From: Microthyrium microscopicum
Lineage: Eukaryota
Direction: 5' to 3'
NCBI GenBank assembly: GCA_010405405.1
Contig: MU004235.1
Span: 1,068,538 to 1,132,537, forward strand
Length of the DNA stretch: 64,000 nt
A program made the translations under genes and the position numbers. The notes beneath the pieces were generated by a model. It was not told the origin of the DNA. It searched no databases and saw only the letters and a list, made by a program, of their open reading frames with translations. This document shows, piece after piece, positions 35,769-62,710 of this stretch (the stretch's first letter is position 1; each line of letters opens with the position of its first letter).

Positions 35769-36562
35769 CATTCCTCACATGCTAACGAAGCTCTGATGGT
35801 CTTGCTGGACCTGTGGCCTTTGTCAACGGGTTCAAATCACCAACTCATGCTCTGGCTTCACTCTTTCTATACACTGAACGACCGGCGCCAATGGAAGCAG
35901 AGATCACACTGAATACACTTGATAAGGCAGTAGTAAGATTAACTAGTTAATGTCATTCCTCTTAGTGCTTCATGCCATTGCATCACTTGTTCATCTATTG
36001 ATTTTTCGTGCCATGATCCTCGTTATCGCTGAAGATATAACTGTTATGCCCTCAATTGGAGATGCTTGACAAAGCTTTACTACTCGCGAAAAATTTGTGC
36101 CTTGGCTACACTTTACCATGACCGACAGTACCCATCGAATGATGAGAAAGAACTATTTTTCGAAGGTGAGACGGCAACCACTTCTCCACCGCTGCCGTGG
36201 GGGCGCAAGAAAACTCTTCATTGTACTTCGTGGGCCAAACAAGATCCGGTCTCGGAAGCAAGACAGACGAGAAAAAGGCACCTATCGTGAATCCGAAATA
36301 AATCCAACATCACCCCACGAAATATGTTGATGAAGGCTCTGATGTTCAGTTCACGGCATCCATATGACGCGGATATTCCCGGATCTGGTCGTTGCAACAT
36401 CACGGACCAGATCGGGACTTCAATCAACCTCTTCAAAAATGTGGCCAGACCAAGACCAGCCAGTGGCGAGACCACAGTCCATCAACGAGGCAAAGCATGG
36501 CAAAATCTCGGCCGCGACTCACGACTCGCAAGACAACTGAAAATCTTGTCTCCAAGAGGCTA

Positions 36563-36637
36563 CCCATCGGTTAAGAACACGATCGCCGCAGGCGATCGGG
36601 GACACCTTAACGAGGAGGACACCTCAACGAGGACTCT
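36563..36637 (+). repeat. Left terminal inverted repeat
   Basis: CCCATCGGTTAAGAACACGATCGCCGCAGGCGATCGGGGACACCTTAACGAGGAGGACACCTCAACGAGGACTCT; 71/75 identical to the reverse complement of 39865-39939. Confidence 0.95.
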
Positions 36638-39600
36638 ATTTACTATAGATTACTAAATAATTAATTCTATACGCAAATTATGATATTATTTAATGTAATT
36701 AATATAGGGTATACCTATAGTACTATTCTATAGCTAGTATTAATTTTAGCAATTAATATTAACTTTTAGGGTGTAATCCTATATAGTAATTAAGTTATAT
36801 AGAATATATAAAAATTATAAAATCTCTTAATTTTAATAATAACTAAAACTACTTAAAGCAAATAACACTTAAATTTTATAGTAAATATAGTAAATAACGT
36901 GCGCGTTTTTATATTGTATGTTAGAAAGCGTTAAAGTTCTAAATAGTTAGTAGTACTTTAAGATTAATATCTTTATTGCTAGAACTAGCTAAAGACTAAT
37001 ATTCTTTATTAGTAATTATATCTAGATTGTTTAGCGCTTTATTACTATAGTATACTTTAATAGGATCTATAGGAAGCTAAGGAAGAGTAGGAAGCTATAA
37101 ATTAAAATACTATTTGATTAGTATATTCTTCTTATAATTATACTTAGGGTAATTAATTCCTATACCTAAAAGGTTACTAAAATACTACTACTAAGGATAG
37201 GTTTAAGGGTAATACTACTATGGTAGAGTAAGATCTTTAAATTATAGTAATAGCGAGTAATTTTAATAGGAATCTGCTTATTTGTACCTCTATATCTTTA
37301 TTATCTCTTTGTCCTTAGTAGCGCGCGTATCTAAAGGCTTGATTTCTTCTTTTTTAACCCTTATTTTACGCTTCTTCTTTAGTAACTAAGATCCCTTAGC
37401 TACTACTACCTAAGATACTTAAATGAGAGTAATTTTAGGCTTAGAATCCTTAAGATCTGTAATCTATAAAGCTTTTAAAGCTTTCTTGATGGTAGCATTC
37501 TTTCGTCTTATAATAATACCCTAAAGATTGGTCTAATTCTAGTTAGTGGCCTTTTTAAACGACTTGACGGTAAGGTAATGAAAAAGAGAGGGATAGACAT
37601 AATCGTAGAGGGCAAGTTAATAAAAAAGCTATAAATCTGTAATATAAAGTTAAATTCTACGCTAAGTATTTAGTAATTCTAACAAGCCTATAATATTATA
37701 ATCTCAAAAATTTGCAACGTAGATAAATCTACCTTTTTAAGCCTATTTCCTAGATCTAGATTTTATCTATTTATCGTAAAGTTAAGCTAGATATAAGTTA
37801 AAGTAGTAATTAATTAATTACGTATAAAGAGAGGCTATTACTTTAGTAGCTATTAGGAACGTCTTCCTATTTATTTTTCTCTATCGCCGTAGATTTATAG
37901 GAACTAAAGATACTAAAGAATGATCCCATAATTATACCTATATTAACATCTCTTTAAAGATCGCTGAATACGCTAGAGGAAGCTAAATCTTAGGTAATTT
38001 TATAGCTTTAGGTATTATAGCACGTCTTCTAAACTTCTAAGTCTTCCTATCCTAATTAGGGTATGTTTTTAGGCCTGCTAAAGGATCTACTATAGGTATG
38101 TGATTAAGTACTAGATAAGGATTAAAGGGTATTATTCCTATACGTCTCTAGGTACTCCTAATATTATTTTTAGTAAAGGTTTAAGATCTAATATGCTTAA
38201 TTATGGCAAAGAAGTGTTATTTATTAAAATTGATAATTCCTTAATGGGCGTAAATATTAATTTCTTCTAAATATTAGTGTTTTTATGGTTAAAAGATACT
38301 AATATCTAATGATTATAGGAAGTACGTTAAATATAAAGGTAGAAGTAATAATTTAATCTTATTTAGCTTACAGAATAGTACGAACTAGTAGGTAAGATAG
38401 CTCTTATATCTATTAATTATTAGAAGCCGCTAGTAAACCTTCTTTCGTGCTTAATCCTTTAGCTAGTGTTACTTTAAGAGTTATTAAAAATACTATATCT
38501 AAATAAATCCTAGGTAGTTGTTTAAATAACTACTATCTAATACTACTATAGTGAAGTTAGTACTCTAGATTTAGTAGTTTCAAAGCTATTAACTTACTAA
38601 TCGCGATATCTCCTAATATAAGCCTATTAAACTAAGATTTTAAGATAATGTGGCCTTTAGTAATAAGAAGAGGCGTAATAGTTCTTCTACTAGCAAAATA
38701 GGCCTCCATAGACGTTAAATTCTCTTAATTACTAAGTAATTTAATATGATTATAATGGCTACTAAAGAACTTGTGATTATTAGGCATAATTACTATCTAG
38801 CCTCTTCCTATATTAATTTAAATGCCTATTTCATCTATATTCTACTAATCTTTAGTTAGAATATTGTATTTATTAATTGTCTCTTTATAATCCTAATAGA
38901 ACTTAGTAATGGTATCTCTATTCATTGCCTGCTTATAAGTAGCTTTAATAGTAGGTTAAAATTATAGAGCAAAAGATAAGCGCTTTATCTAACGGCGAGC
39001 CTATTTTGAGCTAATTTAAGGTTGGTTTTAGAAGAGAATATTGTTAATATTAAGGATATCTCGTTGTAGGATCTCGTTAGTAGTACTCTATATAAGCTTA
39101 ACCTAAATAGGGACCCTAATCTTTGCTATAAGGTTAAGATATTACTTTAGGGTGCTTTCTTACGCTTTAAAGAGCTTTTATTAGTTTAATTTGCGTAAAG
39201 AATAAGATTTAGCGCGACTAGTATATCGCTAATGGAGTTGTTTAGGGTAAATTAAAGGGAATTTTACGGTGAGGGTCTTCTATATAGTCCTAGGCTATTT
39301 ATCTTTAAATTCTATAGCTTTTTTGATAGTTACTTCTTCGTCTATATATAACGCGCAATTTTGCTTTATTTATTAGGTTTTTAAAAGTATATTAATAGTA
39401 GTAGAAATAATTGTTGAAGTAGTGAATTATTAAAAGAGCTAGAATTATTATATTATAGATAATAGAACTAGAACTGCTTTATTATATAAAGTTAGATCTA
39501 CTAAGAGGGTCTAAGCGTTAAATTCCTATTTATTATAACTACTTTGCTAAAAGTATATATTATTTTCTAAAAATTTAGTAGTGTGTTTAAATAGGTATAA

Positions 39601-39864
39601 ATGAAGTTTAGTAAAAATATGAAAATTATCTAATAGTTAGTTACTAAGTAGTTGTAAGGAATGTATAGAAATTAAGAAATACTAACCTAATCCTAAGTTG
39701 AACTAATGATACTTAACTATTTATGCTATAGCTAGTTTCTAAGATATAATTCTCAAAATAATATAGGATTTATAGCTTTTACTACGGAATATAATTCCTC
39801 TTTTAGAATTCGAAAATATTACGTTTTAGCTATATGGCAGCTATATAAAGCAAAGAATATAGAA

Positions 39865-39939
39865 AGAGTCCTCGTTAAGGTATCCTCCTCGTTGAGGTAT
39901 CCCCGATCGCCTGCGGCGATCGTGTTCTTAACCGATGGG
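39865..39939 (-). repeat. Right terminal inverted repeat
   Basis: Reverse complement of the left TIR. All 4 differences are C/T at CpA sites. Confidence 0.95.
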
Positions 39940-42900
39940 TACAGACCTTAGCAAATGCAAGATAGCGATTTGCCAGCTAGACCCTGTCAAGATTGCCCGG
40001 ACAATCTTGTCAATCTAAACCGTATTTGGCACAGTCGCGGAGAACGGAAGCACGCGGACTCATTTTTTGTCTTTGAAAGCTGTCAAACCTGTCTTGGAAG
40101 AGATGCATCTATCCACTAATCTTACTCCGAACTTTGCAAGGTTGGAAGCTACGATGTTTGGATCAACGCGCGGACTCGCATTCTTGTAAACCGAAGTTTT
40201 GAACAATAAATTTAAACCTTTCGGAATGTATAAGATGGCCTTCCTGATTCGGAGAAAGCCTAGGGATCCCGAGCAAAGTGATTAGAAATGATCGAGTTAC
40301 TCCGAAAATCCGTCATCGGATGCGTCGGCAGCGGGCAACGAGTAGTCAAAAATTGCCAACGGCCAAGATTTTCTGCGTAACGTCGAAAGTTTACGAGGGT
40401 GATACAGCTACTACATTTCATTGGTATAGCAAACACAGATACTGTCTATGGTGGTATAGAATAGTCACAAGTCGTCGTAGAAGCTGTTAGCTTTGTGCGA
40501 GATGAGGAATCAATAATACGAATATAGCTATGGATACCAGAATCTGGCAGTGAAAGGTCAATCAGGCTGAAATGGGTCTTGGACGGGCCGAGTTTGATTA
40601 GAGATCTGCGAGGCCCGTAAGGCTGTCGAAAGTAATTTGCTAAGCTTTGTTTCGTGCCGGATATAGCAATTCAGGGCAGTGCTTTTGGGCAAGCTTGTGG
40701 AGGGCGGACGGATCCGATGGAGATTATTTGACGAGGTAGCAAGGCGGATCTAAGTATTTGACGATTATAAGGATTATATCGATTGTCTGTTTTTTGGCCG
40801 TAGGATTATCTTCTCGGTGTTGAGGCATTTATTTTTTCTAGAACGCAGCAACAAGGCTGAAAGGAGTGTGTGAATCGTGGCAGAGAATGAGAAGCATCAG
40901 ATCAGGCGTCATATTACGGTTAAATCGAAAACACTCATTTGTAGTACGCTACGAGCTCACTCTTCATATAAAATCGACCCCACTTTAGTCGAGCTTCATG
41001 GGCTTCCCCGGTTCATTTGTTCTTTGCTTAGGTCAGGGTGGCTGATCCCAGCATCAATTCCGGCTGGACATGGTAGAATGATATTGAAGCCTTGGATTTA
41101 TTAGGCATTCTCCCATCTAGTGCCGTAGTAGAAAAAATAAACAAATAAATTCTGGGAGCGATGACGGATACTGTCCGCATGATTTGAGGGTTTGAGGGCG
41201 CAGTCAAGTGTCAGCCTGATGGGTCATCATTCGCTCGCGGCTGAAGGCGCAGCCCGAAATAGCCTTGGCACATTACATCAAACAAACCCAAAGAGGGCAA
41301 GGCAAGAAATGATTGCGATTCAATCTATCTTGACAAAATAATCGTGGTAGCCTGACTATTAGCCCAAAAGGGTATGAAATAAGCGAAGCTTGATATTTGA
41401 TGGGAAAGAAAGAGTCATCGTGGTAAGTAAATGGAGTATTTGGAAGCGACATGGATGGAAATGACTTGGTTGTTTCAGAGAGGAAAAGAAGGATGAAACG
41501 AGGATGGGTCCTTTCGGTGTTGATTATATGAAGAACAATAATAGATCGTAGGATTCACTGTAGCAGATCTCAGAAATGATAACAATTATTAGAGTTGATA
41601 GCAATTAACAAACATCTGAAGAGACGGGATGTCAACAGATGAGTCGAAAGCGGGCGCATCATGCGAGTCATCGCAGGTTAACCAGTGAGAAGCGGCTCTG
41701 CCCGCTTACGCAATGCTTTAGTTAGCGCTAGTAGCTGCTTCTGCGTTGATGATTTGCTGGGTCAGGTTCTCTGCAGTAGCGTCATGCAACTAAACTCTAT
41801 ACTGGATGGTGAATGGCTAATCTGACTTGGCTGGTGTTGGCTGCTGCAAAACGCCCAAGATTGCTCAAGACACAGGATTCACCAAGCAACCAGAAACGAA
41901 AGCAAGGCTGCGTGGATGCCACACTGCCTGCTGCTAGCATGGGAACACATATCATGGTATGATGGGCCGTGGCGAGCCAGGTCTCCTAGGTGCCCACGAA
42001 GTTGGACCAACCAGCTCAGCTGGAGAGGTAAGAGAACAGTTGGCATTGGACAGAGGGGCGGATCAGGCATGGCATCCATTCAATTTCTGGGTGCAGCTGC
42101 AAGGCAAAGAGCAAGATGTTTGAGAAAAATGTGTCCCCTCTAGAGTCCAAGGGGCGAGCTGGACCGTGCAATAATGAAGCCAAGTTGCAAAGTTGCAAGT
42201 TGCAAGGCAAAAACCCAACTTGGCCCTTTCCGGAACCACAGCCCAGCGAAAAGCGAAAAGCCCAGCGGAACCTGCGACCCAGCACGAGAGACTTGGACTG
42301 TGCTCACTGGCCACTGCACGATGACTGGAGTAATCTGAGCAATCTGAGCCCACCACGCCTGTTGTGCTGTCGCTGCTGTCGCTCAGGCTCTGGTCGACCA
42401 CCTCATCAAAACTCGACTCCTCCCCCTTCTCTCCTCCGCTCCTCTCTATCACCGCAACGATGTCTTTTCCTCTCATCTAGATCGCTACGCGCGCCTGCGC
42501 TCTATCTATCCTCCAATAAATCAACTCTCTTCATCTTCTTAATCACCTCTTTGTGTTGTTTGCCTTCCTGAATCCGCGTAACCCCAACTCCTCCGCCTTT
42601 GGTACTCGATTTCTAGCTGCTTTTGCCTCCTTTGTCTCGCAATCCACCTCCAGTCCAAGCGCCGCTGCCTGGACCCCGTCGACTCACCCACCACCCCTTC
42701 ATACAACCAGTCAACACACTATTGCCTCTTTGAACATCTGTCATCTGAGGCCTTGCCACTTTCTCCTTCTTTTATTTTAAAATCTCCCCTCCTGCTTTTG
42801 TTTCTTGTTCAGTATCACGACCTTCGACTTACCCTTCACTAATACACCTTGTTCCGTCGCCCCCTCAGTCCTTCAGGTCATCCCCCATTCCGGCCCCGCC

Positions 42901-50248: not shown

Positions 50249-52658
50249 TCACCGCGCGCGAGTTCCGCGTCCTCGCACCAGGAATGGGCTGGGCATCTCA
50301 TCAGTCTCTGGATCCCACACCGGACACTGCTTAGTAGGGCTAGTAAACTTGCTCGCTTCTAGGGTACGGTCTATGCCGCCCGCGCGCGCTTGCGCCAGCT
50401 CAACGAGGGTGCGGCCATGGACTCCGCCCATCTGATTGCGAAGCGCTGTCTTCATCAAGCCGGCACCCCCGACACTAACTTCGTCACTAGCGCTGCCCTT
50501 CTTGCTGCGGAAGCCAGTGTTGGCTGTTGCTGCTTTGCGTGGAGAATTGCCAGATTCTGGGATGCGTGTTGCTCGACGGGTGGGCGAATCGGTGTTGGCG
50601 GCTGTCTTGCGAGTGGGTGAAGTTGCAACCACGGGCACAGCGGACGCAGGCCGCGGCTTGAGGACTGGCTGTGCTGCGGGTACAGAAGGATTCAGGGGAA
50701 AGAGTGATGGAGCGGAGGTTAGGCGCTTCATGTTGGCGGGTGCTGTACGCTCACGCGCGAGTGAAGGGCGGGCTTTGCGGGCGACAGGACCAGCGACTGG
50801 GACGCCTGCTCCCTGCATCTTACGCTTAGTATGAGCACGGGAGGGCGAAATCATGCTGAGGTCTGTGTCGGGTTCGTCGGCGGAGAGATCGGAGTATGCA
50901 ATGGTGTCGTCACTATCACTTATGTTTGTCGATTGCCAGCGCTTAGCCGGATCTTGGACCGTAGCGAAGATGTTGCTGTTTGTTTGTCGCGTATGACCGC
51001 GGCCTGGAGACAGATTGAGGTTGTCGATGCTCATTGGAGATGGCGAGGCCATGTGAACATCTTGAGGGGAGAAGACATCAATCATATCGAAAGATTGAAT
51101 GGTTGGTTGATTGGCAATGGTATGTGCGCGTGTAAAAGGAGTGCGTGTTGAGCGTCTTCGACCAGTCTTTGACTCTTGAGACGATTGTGTTGAGGGGTCA
51201 GATTCCAGGGAGAGGCGGCTGAGTCCTGGCCCAAGATCCGCAGACATCATATAGCTAGGCTGTCCCGAAGGTACTTCATCGCGAATAGTGGACTGTGTAC
51301 AGTCGGTATCCTCCTCTTGCGTGCTTGTCAGTCCGACTGCGGTTTTCCCACTAAGATTCGAGTGGACTGATGAGCGGCGTGAGCTGATGTCTTTCATGCG
51401 AGCTTTGCATAATTCTTCTGCCTTGGAGGCAACAGCAGCATCGAATTGGCCCTGGAACTCTGCTTTGGCTAGTGCAACCTGTCGGTCAATCTCTAGACGA
51501 GCCTTGACTTCCCATTCACGCCGAAGCTTAGTATTCACCTCCAGACTAACTTGCTGGCGATGTAGCTCAACCTCTTGTGCTTTTTTCTGAAGATCCTTGT
51601 GTAGTATTACTGCTTCTTGTTGCTTTCGTACCACGGAAACAATAGGCAGGTTTAAGAGATGTGCCGCAGTTGGTCGTTGGTTTGGGTTTACCTGAAGACA
51701 GCTGGTGATGACCTTTTGTAGTTCTTGGCTGTATACTGGCGGAATAGCGCGGAACTTGCCTAATCTGATCTTTTGGAATAATTCGATATGGGATCTCGCA
51801 TTGAAAGGAACCTCAAGGCTGCAGAGTTCGTAGATGATGCAGCCTAAAGACCAGATATCGGAAGCGCTTGTATAGCGCTCACTTCCAGCGAGCTCTGGGG
51901 ACATGTAGTAAGGTGTTCCAACGTAAGTGCTAGCAAAGTCGTGAGATTTTATGATCTTAGACAGGCCGAAGTCGCCAAGTTTGACATTGTTGTTATGGTC
52001 CAAGAACACTAAAGACGTCAGCACAAGACACATCAAATAAAATAGAGCGGGAATTTACCATTCTCTGGCTTAAGATCACGATGAATGATAACCAACGTTT
52101 GGCCTTTTGGAGGGGCCACGCGCTTCTTAGAGAGGCCAAACCAATCGTCCCCTACTTCGGGTGCATCGATGCCATTATGGCAGCGAAACAGGGCAGTAAC
52201 AATCTGGGCAAATATAGACCAAACAAACTGTTCTGGCGCATGCTCTCCCCGTCTCTTGTAGTCCTTGATAACTTGACCAAGATCGCCGTTCCCGCAGTAT
52301 TCCATATACATGTGTAGATCTTGTGTGGCTTTCAAGTGCTCGCGCTCGTAGTATTGGACGATGTTTGGATGACGAAGTTCTTTGAGAATGGAGAGTTCGG
52401 ACTGTAGTTGTTCTTTCTCTTTCTGGGACATTTTGAGATAAGAGATCTCTTTCCGACAGAGTATCTTTGGCAGACGTTAGACTGATTCTTGAGGGGCAAT
52501 AGGAGGGGATCACGTACCAAGCCATCCGACTTTCTCTTGACCTTGCTGATAACTCCAAAGGACCCTTGCCCTACTCTCTAGTTAGTATGTGATAGGAGGG
52601 AAGGAATGATGGTCATACCAATCTTGCCCAAAACCTCATATTTGTCGGAATCAGCCAT
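50249..52658 (-). CDS. nimA: NIMA (never-in-mitosis A) Ser/Thr kinase
   Basis: MADSDKYEVLGKIG|QGSFGVISKVKRKSDG|ILCRKEISYLKMSQKEKEQL, HRDLKPEN, KLGDFGLSKIIKSHDFASTYVGTPYYMSPE, coiled coil LRREWEVKARLEIDRQV, GRTLVELAQARAGG and WDPETDEMPSPFL. Three introns. Confidence 0.95.
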
Positions 52659-52926: not shown

Positions 52927-53788
52927 GAGAGTTAAGCAGGGCGCTAACCGAATAAAGTTAGCGAATAGTGACTGGCTCAAGCGCCATCCAATGATATCTC
53001 CGCACGGGTAACTCCGAACTGCTATAAGGCTAGCCTTGGCAAGGCTGCGCAACAATCAAGTAAACCCCATTTCTGATATGCAGATAGGAGGATTTACCAT
53101 TGTTTGCTTCACTGAGATACATGCGTGTTCTGTATCTGACAATTAGGTGCCATGGAGCTGCGTTCAAGCTTCCCGTGCTGCCTTGGCCTTGCTTTAGGCG
53201 ACCACGATTTCAGCCTGACAAAGAACACATCAAATCTCAATTGACCACAATTTGAACAAGATATTCGATCTCACGGAAAATCAATAAGCAGAATAGGAGA
53301 TCAAATCTCGGCGCGGTGACTACTTAACAGGCTTTCGCTCAAGCAGTGAGGTTCAAGCAGTGAGGTTCTCGCGATTCTATGGACCTACCAGGCCCTAAAT
53401 GCTAAGACGATGGTGGAGTTGCAAGATTGGCAGCAACTTTTACCTTGTAAGTTTCTTCAAAGAGCCTCCTGGGCGTTCATGCAGATGTTAGAAGAATGAT
53501 GCCTGAGTGGATAATATAACTTCTCCATTCAATGGTTGCAGTATCTCTTGCTATTGACTGGACGCGTATATTTTCTAGTATACGTGGACAAACATACGCT
53601 GGCTGGCGACTCCTGCTAGAATTAGGTATCGCGAGGATTAGAAAAACAATGCCTTGTCAAGTTTTACTTGGAGCTTTCAAACGGAAGTGATATATAGCAG
53701 GGCAATCTCGGTAACTCTTCAATATGCTGCAGCAAAAAGATTTCGACCTTTAACGCATATTCCATCTTTTCTCTCACACAAGAGAAAC

Positions 53789-53795
53789 AAAAAAA
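53789..53795 (-). terminator. T7 tract: likely RNA polymerase III terminator of the tRNA gene
   Basis: TTTTTTT on the minus strand, about 18 nt downstream of the tRNA discriminator base. Confidence 0.7.
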
Positions 53796-53812
53796 GAAAT
53801 AACCTTTGAAAT

Positions 53813-54001
53813 TGCGGCGACCGAGACTCGAACTGATTATCTTGTCAGAATCACCAATGCAATTGATATGTTACAGTAAAATTACCTCGGCGCTCAAGCA
53901 GATTTCTCATTATAGCATGGGAAGCTTGAACTAAGTTCAAGTTAGTCAAAGTCTTATAAATGACTTCACCATGTTTACTTTTACCCCTAAACCACCGCCG
54001 C
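53813..54001 (-). tRNA. tRNA-Gly(CCC) interrupted by two spliceosomal-type introns and one canonical tRNA intron
   Basis: Exons 53979-54001, 53918-53930, 53886-53900 and 53813-53832 give 71 nt: GCGGCGG TG GTTT AGGGGTA AAAT T CAAGC TT CCC AT GCTTG AGCG CCGAG TTCGAGT CTCGG TCGCCGC A. All four stems pair. Gly identity elements G1-C72, C2-G71, G3-C70, C35/C36 and A73 are present. Confidence 0.9.
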
Positions 54002-54492
54002 ATTTTGGTAAATCAAAATTCCGCACAATTCATACATAATCAACAGTGGTTGTTCTTTGAGTTCCTTCCGCCAACGCGCACCTGTAACGGTCAAAAGTCA
54101 TGAATTCTCTGCACGATGTAGAATCAAATGTAGCAAAGCCTTGCGTATCACTTTACTTTACAATTTTGGCGACTGAAACAAATGCGCATCAGAAATAGAG
54201 AAGTGTTCTGCGAGCAAGTCAAGAAATGTTGATGGAAAATCTGCAAGGTGAAGTTTGATACTGCGAACTTTGACGGCATTAGCTTGACTCCCAATGTGAA
54301 ACGACATCCAGTTGCAGTGAAGCGGTGCGACTGCCGTAATAGGCAGTCGGGAGAGGAAGAGTGTGGAAGTTCCACTAGGCAAATGCCATGTCACGTGCTG
54401 GGCTTTTTTCTGGGATGCAACTTTAAACCTCAACCTTCAAACTCTCAGCAGCTTGTCATCGCTTCTACACTCACGCATACAAACCATTCACC

Positions 54493-55743
54493 ATGTCTGA
54501 CACTGAGCATCAATCTCCAGAAAACCTTCAGGATGGTGGGAATCCAGCACAAGATCAAGTCCCAGACGGCGAAAGCGCACCGCTGCAAGAGCAGCCTAGC
54601 GATGGCGAACAAGCACCCGCAGAGACCGCTCTCACCACCACAAACCCCGAAAAGAAAATGAAAAAAGTAAAACGAGTCAAGAAGCGCCGAGCTGCTCGAA
54701 TACAAGTTGATCCCGCAACCTTCAAGCCTCCAGCACCCGAAGCCAGTGGCACAATATTCAACATCTGGTATAACAAATGGTCGGGTGGTGACCGTGACGT
54801 TCCCGTTCAGTTTGCTGCGCCAAATCGATGCGATATCGAAAAAGACGCCGGCTATACCCTTGCCGATAGTATCTCAGGCTCATATTTCTGTTTATACTTT
54901 GCGCGAGGTATCTGCACCAAAGGTCGCGATTGCGAATATCTACATCGATTACCTGGGATTCACGATATATTCAATCCCAACATGGATTGCTTCGGTAGAG
55001 ACAAGTTCTCGGATTACAGAGATGACATGGGTGGTGTTGGTAGCTTTATGCGACAAAATCGAACCCTTTACATCGGCCGAATCCACGTCACGGATGATAT
55101 CGAAGAGATCGTGGCGAGACACTTTGCGGAATGGGGACAAGTTGAGAGAACTCGAGTGTTGAATCAACGAGGTGTCGCATTCGTCACCTACTCAAATCTT
55201 GCCAATTCGGAGTTTGCCAAAGAAGCGATGGCTCATCAATCGCTCGACAATGGTGAAGTGCTCAATGTTCGATGGGCCACCATGGATCCCAACCCGGCGG
55301 CACAAAAGCGAGAGGCACGAATGATCGAAGAGCAAGCCGCGGAGGCTATACGAAGAGCATTACCACCAGATTACGTTGCTGAACTCGAAGGGAGAGGTGT
55401 GGATTCACGGAAAAAGAGAAAGACAGAAGGAAACTTCGGCTTGGAAGGATACGAAGCCCCGGATGATGTTTGGTTTGCGAAAGAAAAGGCCGAATGGATA
55501 GCTCAACAACGGGGATTGCCCAGTGGAAGTGCCGCTTCGATTGAAGGAGATGTGCAACACACAATTGAACCTCCACCAGGGCAACAGGATCAGCAAGACT
55601 TGGGTGGCATTCTCTCTGGCTCTACTCTGGCGGCGTTGAAGGCTCGAACGACAAGTACACCCAAGGTCGCTTTCACTACAGCAAAACAAGCAACATCCTC
55701 AGGCCCTCTCGTGGCATATGGTAGTGATGATGACAGTGATTGA
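54493..55743 (+). CDS. CWC2: Pre-mRNA splicing factor Cwc2 (CCCH zinc finger + RRM)
   Basis: GTIFNIWYNKWSGGD, YFCLYFARGICTKGRDCEYLHRLP, DCFGRDKFSDYRDDMGGVGSF, NRTLYIG and FAKEAMAHQSL..EVLNVRWAT. Single exon. Confidence 0.96.
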   Translation: MSDTEHQSPENLQDGGNPAQDQVPDGESAPLQEQPSDGEQAPAETALTTTNPEKKMKKVKRVKKRRAARIQVDPATFKPPAPEASGTIFNIWYNKWSGGDRDVPVQFAAPNRCDIEKDAGYTLADSISGSYFCLYFARGICTKGRDCEYLHRLPGIHDIFNPNMDCFGRDKFSDYRDDMGGVGSFMRQNRTLYIGRIHVTDDIEEIVARHFAEWGQVERTRVLNQRGVAFVTYSNLANSEFAKEAMAHQSLDNGEVLNVRWATMDPNPAAQKREARMIEEQAAEAIRRALPPDYVAELEGRGVDSRKKRKTEGNFGLEGYEAPDDVWFAKEKAEWIAQQRGLPSGSAASIEGDVQHTIEPPPGQQDQQDLGGILSGSTLAALKARTTSTPKVAFTTAKQATSSGPLVAYGSDDDSD

Positions 55744-58800: not shown

Positions 58801-60619
58801 CCTGATTCGAATCTCCCTCGCTTGAGCTAGAGTCATGTGTATCTGACTTATTAGTGAATGAACATCATAGACGTGCTGTGTGAGTGTGTGAGCTAACTTT
58901 GCGCTTAAGCAACCGATAGTGCCGAAGTGCTACTGAATGGTGCTCCGCATTCATAACATTGCAGCAACTTACCGAGCTTTGCTGATTATCTCATAGCATG
59001 GAGTGACACAAAGAGTGCTTACAGATCATGGCCAACATAATGTCCTTTTCATCGGCTTTCAAAATTTCGACGGTAAGAGCCCAGAACTCATCTATAGATC
59101 GTGCGGTGGCAATCTTGACGGCAAGATCCATGAGTGTATCGAGTCTGCCATAGGTAATCAGCTTGAATAGGGGCAGATCTGCATCGGGAGGTTTACCTGC
59201 GAAGGTGCTGTATCTTGAAGGTCGAAGAAATTCTGTTTATTGGTCAATTTTGATATACGACGCTTGGAAGCATGAAATCAACTGTACCCTCGGAAGTAGC
59301 TGGCAAGAATATTGCCTTGTACACTTTTAAATGGTATCTAACATTGCGTTGGTCAGTGTTGACCCTTGAATGGGAGTGCTTCCTCTTCTGTTGACTATTT
59401 CATCTTTCCTGCAAAAGCGTATAGGCATGATAAGGGAAATGAAGTGGAGGAGGTAAAAACAGTAACCTACGACGGCGAGATCAAAGTAGTCTTCCACCAT
59501 ATGGCCGTCGCTAGACATGAACATGGGGAGATCGTCTGAGCTGTCGAGTGTCAGAAGAGATGTCGAGTGTCAGAAGAGATGTCGAGTGTCAGAAGAGATG
59601 TCGAGTGTCAGAAGAGATCTCCAGAGTAAGGTAGAGTACATACAGAATAGCGCGGCCCGTTCGAATGTCGTCAAAAATACCCACCAAGTAGTCGCAATAT
59701 CCAGGCATTGCTTCTAAGATCGGTTGGCCCATACAAGGATGAAAAGTAGAAATGATTCGAGCGTATTCTGAGTTATAGATCATAACCTTGCCTTCTCCCC
59801 AGCAGACCAAGGCTGGATTAGGATCAGCCATGACAAGATTGCTGATAATTCGAAGTTCGTCCGGCCAGTCCTTTTTAAACCGTCAATTCAGTTCGATTGG
59901 ACTATTGCAAGATTGGGTATAGAGTTGCGTATGTCCATTCTCTTCTCGACTGTGTGAGGAGCACCTACATACATTTGGATCACCAAGTTCAGTGCTTTTC
60001 CAATCAACAGTCCGAGCGTATTGCAAATGCTCGTCCAACTCCTTGATATCAATTCGGGTCCAATCGAAAACATGCTGAGCTGATATGGGTTTGTCACAAC
60101 TGGGGTTGAGGATTGTAGGAAATGATAATGACGAAACGGCATGGCCAATTTCGGGAGGGTATTTCTCATTTGAAGGTTCCGAATCTTCGTAAGTGCCTTT
60201 CGATGCTTTGGTTCGCATGTTCTTCGCAAATTCGCTGAATAACGTGCCACTCACAATGACCCATTGGCCTCTAACGACACATCGGCTCCAAGCATACCCC
60301 TTAACTTGTAAGCTTCGAGAAAAACTTTGCATTGTAGGGCTATACAGACCTGGAAGAGAAAAGTAGTTGATTCACCCTCTGGTGCTCCACCCATTGCCCA
60401 TTGAAAGTATTCCGCGTGCTTGAAAGTCCATGAGATAACCAGAGTAGAGGCGTGGTATTCTCCTTTGACACTTTGAAGCAGGAGCTCTTTCGATTCCAAA
60501 GCAACGTTCTGCCAAAGTATGTTGAATTTGTCTGTACCTGGATTATCGAGATCCAGAACGAATGTAGGTCGAACGTCATGCTTTAGGAATTCATTAAGGG
60601 GGACGGCGCCAAAATCCAT
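55848..60619 (-). CDS. Hybrid histidine kinase (PAS-HisKA-HATPase-REC) carrying two in-frame TAG codons (pseudogene or edited gene)
   Basis: H-box NHELRNPLSAI, N-box INLITNAIKFT, G1 VRDTGKGM, F-box LFTRFAQASPKTH, G2 YGSSGLGLYISR, and REC VLIVEDNLINQ..LLD*EMPVMDG..GVTAN..GM|DDFLAKPF. More than 10 introns. TAGs at 57012-57014 and 56130-56132. Confidence 0.85.
59542..59618. repeat. 19-bp perfect tandem repeat x4 inside a histidine-kinase intron
   Basis: (tgtcgagtgtcagaagaga)x4, lying within intron 59541-59643 (GTATGT...CAG on the minus strand). Confidence 0.95.
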
Positions 60620-61190: not shown

Positions 61191-62710
61191 CTACTTGAGA
61201 AAGGTAGTGAGCTCGAAGTGTTTAAGACCATTTATCGCTTCGTCAGTCTTGTCGCTTCTGGTCGGACTTGTTACGTCCTCGATTATCCTCGTCAAGTACG
61301 TTGGCTCCTCAGAAACCTCGAAGAGATCACTGAATCCATCTTCTAATTGTCTCTCCGGCCACCGCAGAAACTCCGTCCAGTGATCCGGTAATGCGGCCCG
61401 TACCGACTTGAGGGCTCTACGGGAATATCCCACAAGATACCAGTAAGTGTCTTCTACAATGCCGGAGAGCATGGCGAAATGGGCAAAGATAATGAGGGCT
61501 AGAGGATTTGACCCCCTTAGTAACGATAAGTACTCCTCAGAGGTAAAAGCCGCCCATTTCCAGATGATGTTCATCAACGTCGTAGGCGAGCACGAATCCC
61601 TCAAGGTGTGTACTTCGGCGAAGGTGGTTTCCAGCCTGTCTAGAGTAGTGAATAGGCACTGCCGAATGTCAACATCGGCGCATGATTTGCCCATCCAGTT
61701 TCTGAGCCGATTGAACTGATTTCGGGTAGCCTCATTAAGCTTTGTTGGCATTCCAGTCACCATACCTGCTCCTCGGAGTGCAACTAGCGGCCCATCCAAA
61801 TACCATCGATGACCAAAGCAAAGCAGTTTGAACACGCCTCGATTGTGCATGACCGGCTCCAGTATGTCTGCAATGGGCGCAATTTCGTCTCCATGACTGG
61901 TTGACCTTGAGTGCGACATTGATGAGAGTGATAATATTATTACTAGTCCGAAGACGGCGTGGAAGTTCTTTGATGTTATGTTTGATACTATATCTATAAG
62001 TAACAAGCCAACGTGCTATGTTTGTCACTGAGTACTCACAAGTTAAGCGAAGTTGATTTAGTGCTGTGTTTTGATATTTGAGAGCATGTTGAACCCACAC
62101 CCTTTCAGTTGGTCTTTGATATGCCATGTGAAATGCTGATAGACTGAGAATGCCATTCATGAGATATGGATGCTCCATAGCCAGACCAGGAAGTCCTTCT
62201 TCTGTAGCATCTCGTCAGCAAGTATGTCACAAATCAACAGCTGCTGTGGGCTTATCTTACTCCATAGTATGATCATGCCAGATCCCATTGCTGAAAACTC
62301 TTTGACGGTGTTTGTAGTGAAATGTGACATTAAAAACACATCGCGACTCCATTGCTAGACAATCTTAGCCACTTGCAGTCCTACAGCACACTCGAACATA
62401 CCGATGATAATGCAGGCCTGTCTATGCCATTACACGTGAGGCACTCAACTACGCGATACTCGTTTCTTCTTTCGCATTTCTCATTTCTGTTTACACAATT
62501 CGTGCATGGATATAGTTCGTCACACTTGGGTACAAAGTCAGAAGTGGCGATCTATAATATATCGTGAACACTAATTACCTTGACTCTGCGTGCTTTGCAG
62601 TGCACACAGCCATTTCGAGACTTTTTGTGCTTCCGTATCCTCGGGTTTGCCGAAGTTCTCCTGGTTGCGATACTGTTCGGTGAGCTATCAGATCGCGGCG
62701 AGCGTGACAT
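61191..62710 (-). CDS. Zn(II)2Cys6 transcription factor, Upc2/Ecm22-like C-terminal domain
   Basis: RKHKKSRNGCVHCKARRVK|CDELYPCTNCVNRNEKC; LMSHFTTNT, HPYLMNGILSLSAFHMAY, and PLALIIFAHFAML. Several introns. Confidence 0.85.

Follow-up and report, generated by a model that had tools for sequence, protein, structure and literature searches.

The 64-kb stretch of Microthyrium microscopicum DNA analysed here (the window, in what follows) carries, on the minus strand between positions 54001 and 53813, a candidate gene for a glycine transfer RNA (tRNA) with the anticodon CCC that is split by three inserts of two different kinds. Two of the inserts, of 48 and 53 nucleotides (nt), have the donor, branch site and acceptor of the short messenger RNA (mRNA) introns of the same fungus, and the third, of 17 nt, has the position and fold of a canonical tRNA intron. 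Judging from the sequence, we consider it about 60% probable that this is a working tRNA-Gly(CCC) gene, selectively maintained, whose transcript needs the spliceosome and then the tRNA splicing endonuclease to mature.

Structure of the split tRNA-Gly(CCC) gene

The gene is made of four exons, all on the minus strand. Exon 1 (53979..54001, 23 nt) provides tRNA positions 1-24, that is, the 5' strand of the acceptor stem, the 5' strand of the D-stem, the D-loop and three bases of the D-stem 3' strand, and it includes the A-box-like sequence TGGTTTAGGGG. It is followed by insert 1 (53931..53978, minus strand, 48 nt, spliceosomal type), which lies within the D-stem at 24/25, starts with the donor GTAAAC and ends with the acceptor TAG; its branch site CTAAC is followed by 10 bases, and the branch adenosine is at 53942, 11 nt before the 3' end. 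Exon 2 (53918..53930, 13 nt) covers positions 25-37, from the final D-stem base and position 26 through the 5' strand of the anticodon stem and the loop as far as CCC and A37. The 17-nt canonical intron (53901..53917, minus strand) comes next, at 37/38. Exon 3 (53886..53900, 15 nt, positions 38-53) contains the 3' strand of the anticodon stem, a 4-nt variable loop and the 5' strand of the T-stem, and it precedes insert 3 (53833..53885, minus strand, 53 nt, spliceosomal type), which separates the T-stem from the T-loop at 53/54. The donor of insert 3 is GTAATT, its acceptor is CAG, and its branch site CTGAC is followed by 11 bases, the branch adenosine being at 53845, 12 nt before the 3' end. 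Exon 4 (53813..53832, 20 nt, positions 54-73) completes the gene with the T-loop TTCGAGT, the 3' strands of the T-stem and of the acceptor stem, and the discriminator base A73. The insert positions follow the standard tRNA numbering and were counted off the cloverleaf drawn by ARAGORN.

Joined together, the four exons form a 71-nt molecule that ARAGORN calls as tRNA-Gly(CCC), and the 88-nt form in which the 17-nt insert is left in place is likewise called as tRNA-Gly(CCC), with the insert recognized as an anticodon-loop intron. Pairs in the cloverleaf are standard at all 21 stem positions, two G-U pairs included; the stems have 7, 4, 5 and 5 bp, and the anticodon and T loops have 7 nt each. 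All of the bases that we take to be universal in tRNAs can be read in the joined sequence (T8, G18 G19, T33, T54 T55 C56, A58 and C61), as can G1-C72, C2-G71, G3-C70, A73, C35 and C36, which we assume to be the glycine identity elements. An ordinary intronless tRNA-Gly(GCC) gene that was found by chance (locus L003) is identical to the joined sequence at 54 of the 71 positions in a gapless comparison, and the differences fall mostly in stems, where the pairing is preserved. The GT..AG boundaries of both long inserts are unambiguous, since any shift alters the joined sequence. The original prediction had been made by inspection of the sequence, and its anatomy was reproduced throughout: the coordinates and boundaries proved correct to the base, the 71-nt Gly(CCC) cloverleaf was recovered after the removal of the three inserts, and the ARAGORN drawing places one insert at the standard 37/38 site and the other two in the D-stem and at the T-stem/T-loop junction.

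The two long inserts as probable spliceosomal introns

The introns of a nearby coding gene were used as a reference for the host. The gene for a nimA-like protein kinase (50249..52658, minus strand) is on the same strand as the tRNA and further downstream, 1,155 nt separating the tRNA 3' end from the kinase start codon, and it contains three short introns. The first (52618-52571, minus strand, 48 nt) has the donor GTATGA, the branch site CTAAC followed by 10 bases, and the acceptor TAG; the second (about 52514-52462, minus strand, 53 nt) has GTACGT, CTAAC followed by 11 bases, and AAG; and the third (52058-52009, minus strand, 50 nt) has GTAAAT, CTGAC followed by 8 bases, and TAG. These introns are validated by the protein that they interrupt: the glycine-rich loop K-I-G | Q-G-S-F-G (GxGxxG) and the HRDLKPEN and DFG motifs are restored across them, and the third is flanked by positions 25-116 and 131-261 of the Pfam kinase profile. 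Inserts 1 and 3 share with the verified kinase introns the length, the GTA donor, the CTAAC or CTGAC branch site and the YAG acceptor.

This likeness was expressed as a composite motif (a GTA start, a total length of 42-61, CTRAC 8-12 nt before the end and a YAG acceptor), which replaced a frame-bridging intron finder lacking a branch site that was too noisy for the purpose (1,143 candidates in 117 clusters). The motif occurs 33 times in the window, as compared with 7.6 +/- 3.3 times (maximum 17) in the 128 kb of each of 60 dinucleotide-preserving shuffles. Four of the 33 matches are at the tRNA locus, namely the two inserts and two nested alternatives, and in 14 of the 29 others the match bridges an open frame of 40 codons or more to either side, and these are probably introns of coding genes. 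Inserts 1 and 3 match the motif exactly at the boundaries dictated by the cloverleaf, and a coincidence of this kind is not plausibly accidental.

The claim that the inserts resemble the mRNA introns of the window in length, donor, branch site and acceptor is thus borne out by the kinase introns and by the composite motif. The additional claim that the same donor hexamers recur in protein-gene introns stands in part: GTAATT at 62578 looks like a real donor, whereas GTAAAC at 59196 (minus strand) is doubtful and may be coding, because it lies inside an uninterrupted open reading frame (F-A-G-K-P-P-D...).

The inserts were also compared with the bulge-helix-bulge substrate of the tRNA endonuclease, defined by one or two 3-nt bulges with a 4-bp helix between them and further helices on the outside (PMC3728597, in the portion available), with the register fitted to the canonical 37/38 case. 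In the 17-nt intron three of the four central-helix pairs can form, one of them joining position 32 to the intron, and the anticodon stem serves as a full outer helix, of which 3 bp were counted; this amounts to a relaxed bulge-helix-bulge and agrees with the canonical nature of the intron. For inserts 1 and 3 just one of the four central-helix pairs can form in each, which is the commonest value for random segments of the window, and no bulge-helix-bulge was found in either. The gene therefore appears to carry two different types of introns.

These observations bear on the idea that the tRNA splicing endonuclease removes all three inserts and that the GT..AG ends of two of them are a coincidence. 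Ectopic introns in nuclear tRNA genes have a precedent, since the red alga Cyanidioschyzon merolae has multiply interrupted nuclear tRNA genes, among them tRNA-Ile(UAU) with one intron within the D-stem, one at 37/38 and one at 53/54, the same three classes of positions as here (passages in PMC3728597 and PMC9602550). Against such an explanation stand the background level of helix pairing in inserts 1 and 3, the complete set of donor, branch site and acceptor, spaced as in the mRNA introns of the host, in a motif expected about 7.6 times per 128 kb of shuffled sequence, and the dependence of fungal endonucleases on the 37/38 position that is described in the same part of PMC3728597, the two long inserts being at 24/25 and 53/54. 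Only in red algae and nucleomorphs are eukaryotic endonucleases free of the 37/38 requirement. We regard removal of all three inserts by the endonuclease as highly improbable. The assignment of inserts 1 and 3 to the spliceosomal (U2-type GT-AG) introns is well supported by their sequence signals. Group I and group II introns were considered as well and ruled out, the inserts being far too short.

Detectability of the locus and specificity of in silico splicing

The raw locus is called as no tRNA by ARAGORN, and the same holds for the forms that keep either of the GT..AG inserts. Over the whole window ARAGORN made zero tRNA calls, with or without anticodon-loop introns allowed. Rfam models at gathering thresholds gave no match across the window, and at E values of up to 10 they gave no tRNA within 53700-54120, where just two weak and unrelated matches were returned (E 0.61 and 2.7). 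Both tools are thus blank on the unspliced sequence, as the original prediction had anticipated when it proposed that standard tRNA finders would miss the gene, and the contrast that it expected between the 71-mer and the raw locus was obtained with ARAGORN, as a Gly-CCC call for the former and none for the latter. Eukaryotic tRNA finders permit introns only at 37/38, and split tRNA genes of such a design are for this reason invisible to them.

As a control on the splicing procedure, all GT..CTRAY..AG candidates of 38-90 nt on both strands of the window were cut out, either singly (1,403 records) or as nearby pairs (2,569), and each product was submitted to ARAGORN. Calls were made for 2 of these 3,972 in silico spliced records, and both come from the locus described here; in the second of the two an AG six bases inside exon 2 is used, and the result is a poor and different tRNA call, not Gly(CCC). 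The procedure therefore does not create tRNAs by itself, and the same control indicates that the 64-kb window holds no second split tRNA gene.

Two trivial origins of the locus were also examined and ruled out. An assembly artefact was dismissed on the grounds that contigs built independently from the reads of the probable source run agree with the window, one contig spanning the locus with 0 differences; of four runs compared over 53400-54500, this one alone covers the tRNA locus. A short interspersed nuclear element derived from a tRNA was dismissed on the grounds that there are no repeat copies and that the cloverleaf is perfect.

Transcription signals

Besides the A-box-like sequence of exon 1, the gene contains a B box, whose 11-mer reads the same in the DNA as in the mature form; because AG closes exon 3 and insert 3 alike, this box is left intact in the DNA. 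The A and B box consensus sequences used in this comparison are those that we take to be standard. Seven consecutive T at 53789..53795 on the minus strand, 18-24 nt past the discriminator base, make up a candidate terminator for RNA polymerase III. The locus thus shows the A box, the B box and the downstream T run of a type-2 gene of RNA polymerase III, with an atypical spacing between the two boxes. The predicted fold of the full 189-nt precursor keeps the acceptor stem between its two ends.

Evidence against the proposed reading, and alternative origins

Several features of the locus count against a maintained gene that RNA polymerase III transcribes and two splicing machineries process. With regard to splicing, the donors GTAAAC and GTAATT would not rank as strong in the manner of GTAAGT or GTATGT, because both are devoid of the G at +5 that 9 of the 14 frame-bridging matches have; the verified kinase intron with the donor GTAAAT is also without this G. 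A cryptic donor GTAAAA is found in exon 1 (53984-53979, minus strand), 6 nt upstream of the true GTAAAC, so that the two form the near-tandem GTAAAA-GTAAAC, and another cryptic donor, GTAACA, occurs within insert 3 (53874-53869, minus strand). There is in addition a cryptic AG located 6 nt into exon 2, the choice of which abolishes the Gly call. A 6-bp hairpin, CTTGAA/TTCAAG (53925-53942, minus strand), is predicted to join the final stretch of insert 1 to the six bases that open exon 2, with the TTAG acceptor in its loop; the hairpin arm that comes from insert 1 resembles the 3' strand of the anticodon stem, and on this folding model it could compete with the folding of the tRNA or modulate the use of the acceptor. 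With regard to transcription, the longest T run within the gene, a run of four, is in insert 3, and the distance from the A box to the B box is 160 nt in the DNA vs 42 nt in the mature form, which is long for a tRNA gene. Finally, tRNA-Gly(UCC) is in principle able to read GGG codons, and the split Gly(CCC) gene might therefore be dispensable.

On a different account of transcription, the tRNA is functional and dependent on the spliceosome, and is carried by a transcript of RNA polymerase II, spliced co-transcriptionally and freed by RNase P and RNase Z. Such a transcript could be non-coding, or it could be a long upstream extension of the kinase gene, as the tRNA is on the strand of that gene, upstream of its start codon and within a shared promoter region. 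Spliceosomal introns are normally tied to RNA polymerase II transcripts, according to the available portion of PMC12530127, and 160 nt is an unusual A-B distance for RNA polymerase III. On the other hand, both the A box and the B box are present, a T7 run follows where a terminator would be expected, and neither insert has five or more T in a row. A gene read by RNA polymerase II would also gain nothing from keeping the B-box 11-mer intact in its DNA, though insertion at an AG|GT site could by itself account for this. We find such an origin from RNA polymerase II unlikely.

A second alternative concerns the fate of the gene rather than its polymerase. An ordinary Gly(CCC) gene with a 37/38 intron may have been hit twice by intron-generating insertions, introner-like or reverse-spliced, and may now be dead, with its exons not yet decayed. 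The weakness of both donors at +5 and the possible dispensability of Gly-CCC speak for it. Elements of the introner-like type are also reported to multiply in the Dothideomycetes and to shrink to introns of ordinary appearance (PMC4457414 and PMC3609843, in the parts available). Such elements would be expected in many near-identical copies across a genome, with more than the length of regular introns and a stable predicted structure; within the 64-kb window the inserts have no copies, and their lengths are equal to those of regular introns.

The composition and the relationships of the inserts give signs of constraint on the exons. The G+C content is 59.2% in the exons and 30.7% in the two long inserts, with flanks at 36-39%. 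Inserts 1 and 3 show no relationship to one another (global alignment score 3), and no copy of either was found elsewhere in the window by blastn-short, where exact words of at most 10 nt recur. They therefore do not represent a single element that was freshly copied twice. If the gene were dead, the 21 of 21 stem pairs, T8, G18 G19, U33 and the T-loop bases would have survived next to inserts that are not recent copies, and the splice signals would have stayed intact as well. Two independent insertions into one 71-bp target would also be far likelier over a long maintained life than over a short period of decay. On these grounds we consider a dead gene improbable, and the split tRNA gene is probably functional. 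The retention of all stem pairs, conserved bases and splice signals suggests, for the one sequence at hand, that the spliced product is under selection.

A scan of metagenome contigs for a D-arm, a gap of 30-60 nt and an anticodon loop returned four loci with no relative among them: in two, an ordinary tRNA-Gly(GCC) gene has a fortuitous match downstream, and the other two are fortuitous altogether.

Two short similarities to parts of the gene were encountered in the window. At 53162-53179, about 650 nt off, 17 of 18 bases match the junction of exon 2 and the 17-nt intron in inverted orientation (blastn-short E 0.036), probably by chance. At 59549-59613 there are four 8-nt matches to one word of insert 3, exactly 19 nt apart, a spacing that suggests a short tandem repeat of period 19 in or beside a histidine-kinase-like gene.

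Proposed maturation pathway

Under the reading of a maintained gene that depends on both machineries, a single precursor of about 210 nt would be transcribed, most likely by RNA polymerase III, from a gene with an intact A box, a B box that is intact in the DNA and a T7 run. Recognized by intron definition, the 48- and 53-nt GT-AG introns would then be excised by the spliceosome, which acts in this way on the equally short mRNA introns of the host and, in fission yeast, on the RNA polymerase III transcript of U6. What remains would be a classical pre-tRNA of 88 nt, whose mature domain is now able to fold, and from which the tRNA splicing endonuclease and ligase would take out the 17-nt intron at 37/38. 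Trimming of the ends and addition of CCA would finally produce the 71-nt tRNA. The spliceosome is placed before the endonuclease in this scheme because the eukaryotic endonuclease recognizes the mature domain and measures from it.

Comparison with known systems

Spliceosomal introns outside mRNAs have been described in fungal genes for U6, U2, U5, U1 and ribosomal RNA (rRNA), a list that includes no tRNA in the part of PMC5855946 available. According to the same part, U6 is a transcript of RNA polymerase III with up to four introns per gene that are otherwise unconserved in sequence, and the determinants of intron insertion into non-coding RNA genes are unclear. The locus described here is like those small nuclear RNA genes in having short introns, their donor, branch site and acceptor all canonical, in the gene of a small structured RNA, and it is unlike them in that its host is a tRNA, outside the spliceosome, with an additional and unrelated type of intron. 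The origin proposed for the U6 introns, by reverse splicing into an RNA of the catalytic centre, is not directly applicable in this case, since a tRNA is not part of the spliceosome. As a separate observation, the sequence of the Gly D-arm itself resembles a 5' splice site, which may bear on the origin of insert 1.

The nuclear ribosomal DNA (rDNA) of ascomycetes, notably of lichen-forming fungi, is a second case with spliceosomal introns (Bhattacharya et al. 2000, as cited in an available passage of PMC8527467), and yeast has been reported in the same source to splice an engineered spliceosomal intron from RNA polymerase I transcripts. The rDNA introns share with inserts 1 and 3 the subphylum of the host, the small length and the ectopic position in a gene that is not read by RNA polymerase II, and they differ in being located in rRNA made by RNA polymerase I, with no companion intron of the endonuclease type in the same small RNA. 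Together, U6 and rRNA are a precedent for action of the spliceosome on RNAs that polymerases other than RNA polymerase II have made.

The C. merolae gene for tRNA-Ile(UAU) has the closest arrangement, with three introns in the same classes of positions, and its ectopic introns are removed before the one at 37/38 (PMC3728597, in part), an order that we also suppose for the fungal gene. The algal introns are short (22 nt, for example), form the bulge-helix-bulge and are cut by the endonuclease, as set out in that part of the source, whereas inserts 1 and 3 have 48 and 53 nt, the GT..branch..AG signals and no such motif.

A paper of 2025 treats the types of nuclear introns as unrelated and assigns the spliceosomal ones to RNA polymerase II transcripts (PMC12530127, available portion). 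In full-text literature searches, with most subscription journals outside their scope, no account of a tRNA gene with a spliceosomal intron came up. The available parts of PMC4090602, PMC3978253 and PMC13578239 contain no spliceosomal tRNA intron, with a single unrelated mention of 'spliceosom' in PMC3978253, and those of PMC9860276, where tRNA is not mentioned, and PMC11146597 hold nothing relevant to such introns.

Host and genomic neighbourhood

On the other side of the tRNA from the kinase gene is the gene for the pre-mRNA splicing factor CWC2 (54493..55743, plus strand), which encodes Torus and RRM domains and points away from the tRNA, with its start codon 492 nt from the tRNA 5' end. 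Among named organisms, the nearest by CWC2 are the Dothideomycetes Tothia, Trichodelitschia and Verruconis, at about 70% protein identity, and identity to proteins from metagenomes is as high as 78%; by its sequence the host is a fungus of the Pezizomycotina.

The intergenic part on this side was also found in other data sets. Over 54020-54500, contigs from runs with three other organism labels (X5, X6 and X8) are letter-identical where they overlap, with one inserted T behind 54403 in X5, and those data sets therefore seem to contain this species or strain as well. A run that we guess to be RNA has contigs over 54300-54500 only, near the start of CWC2, and has no bearing on the expression of the tRNA. 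Elsewhere in the window, positions 36001-40000 form an A+T-rich island, with a G+C content of 0.34 and 0.29 in two 2-kb bins vs 0.44-0.54 in the others, which could be a decayed repeat or transposon.

Implications

If the proposed reading is true, tRNA would join the few non-coding RNAs into which spliceosomal introns have made their way, namely U6, U1, U2, U5 and rRNA (PMC5855946, in the part available), and the spliceosome would reach a second class of RNA polymerase III transcripts. One and the same tRNA would then need, in succession, two systems that are treated as separate and unrelated in the available portion of PMC12530127. Such a gene would also bear on the question of how new introns arise, since a tRNA does not occupy the spliceosome's active site. 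The combination used here, removal of candidate introns followed by a tRNA finder, is a simple screen that is applicable to whole genomes. It is conceivable, though we would put it forward as a tentative and rather doubtful extension, that the spliceosome routinely acts on pre-tRNAs in this fungal lineage and that the locus is one of a hidden class of tRNA genes with spliceosomal introns, passed over by standard finders. Should this be the case, some of the 'missing' isoacceptors in fungal annotations would be artefacts, and spliceosomal introns could colonize any abundant nuclear RNA, irrespective of the polymerase that makes it.

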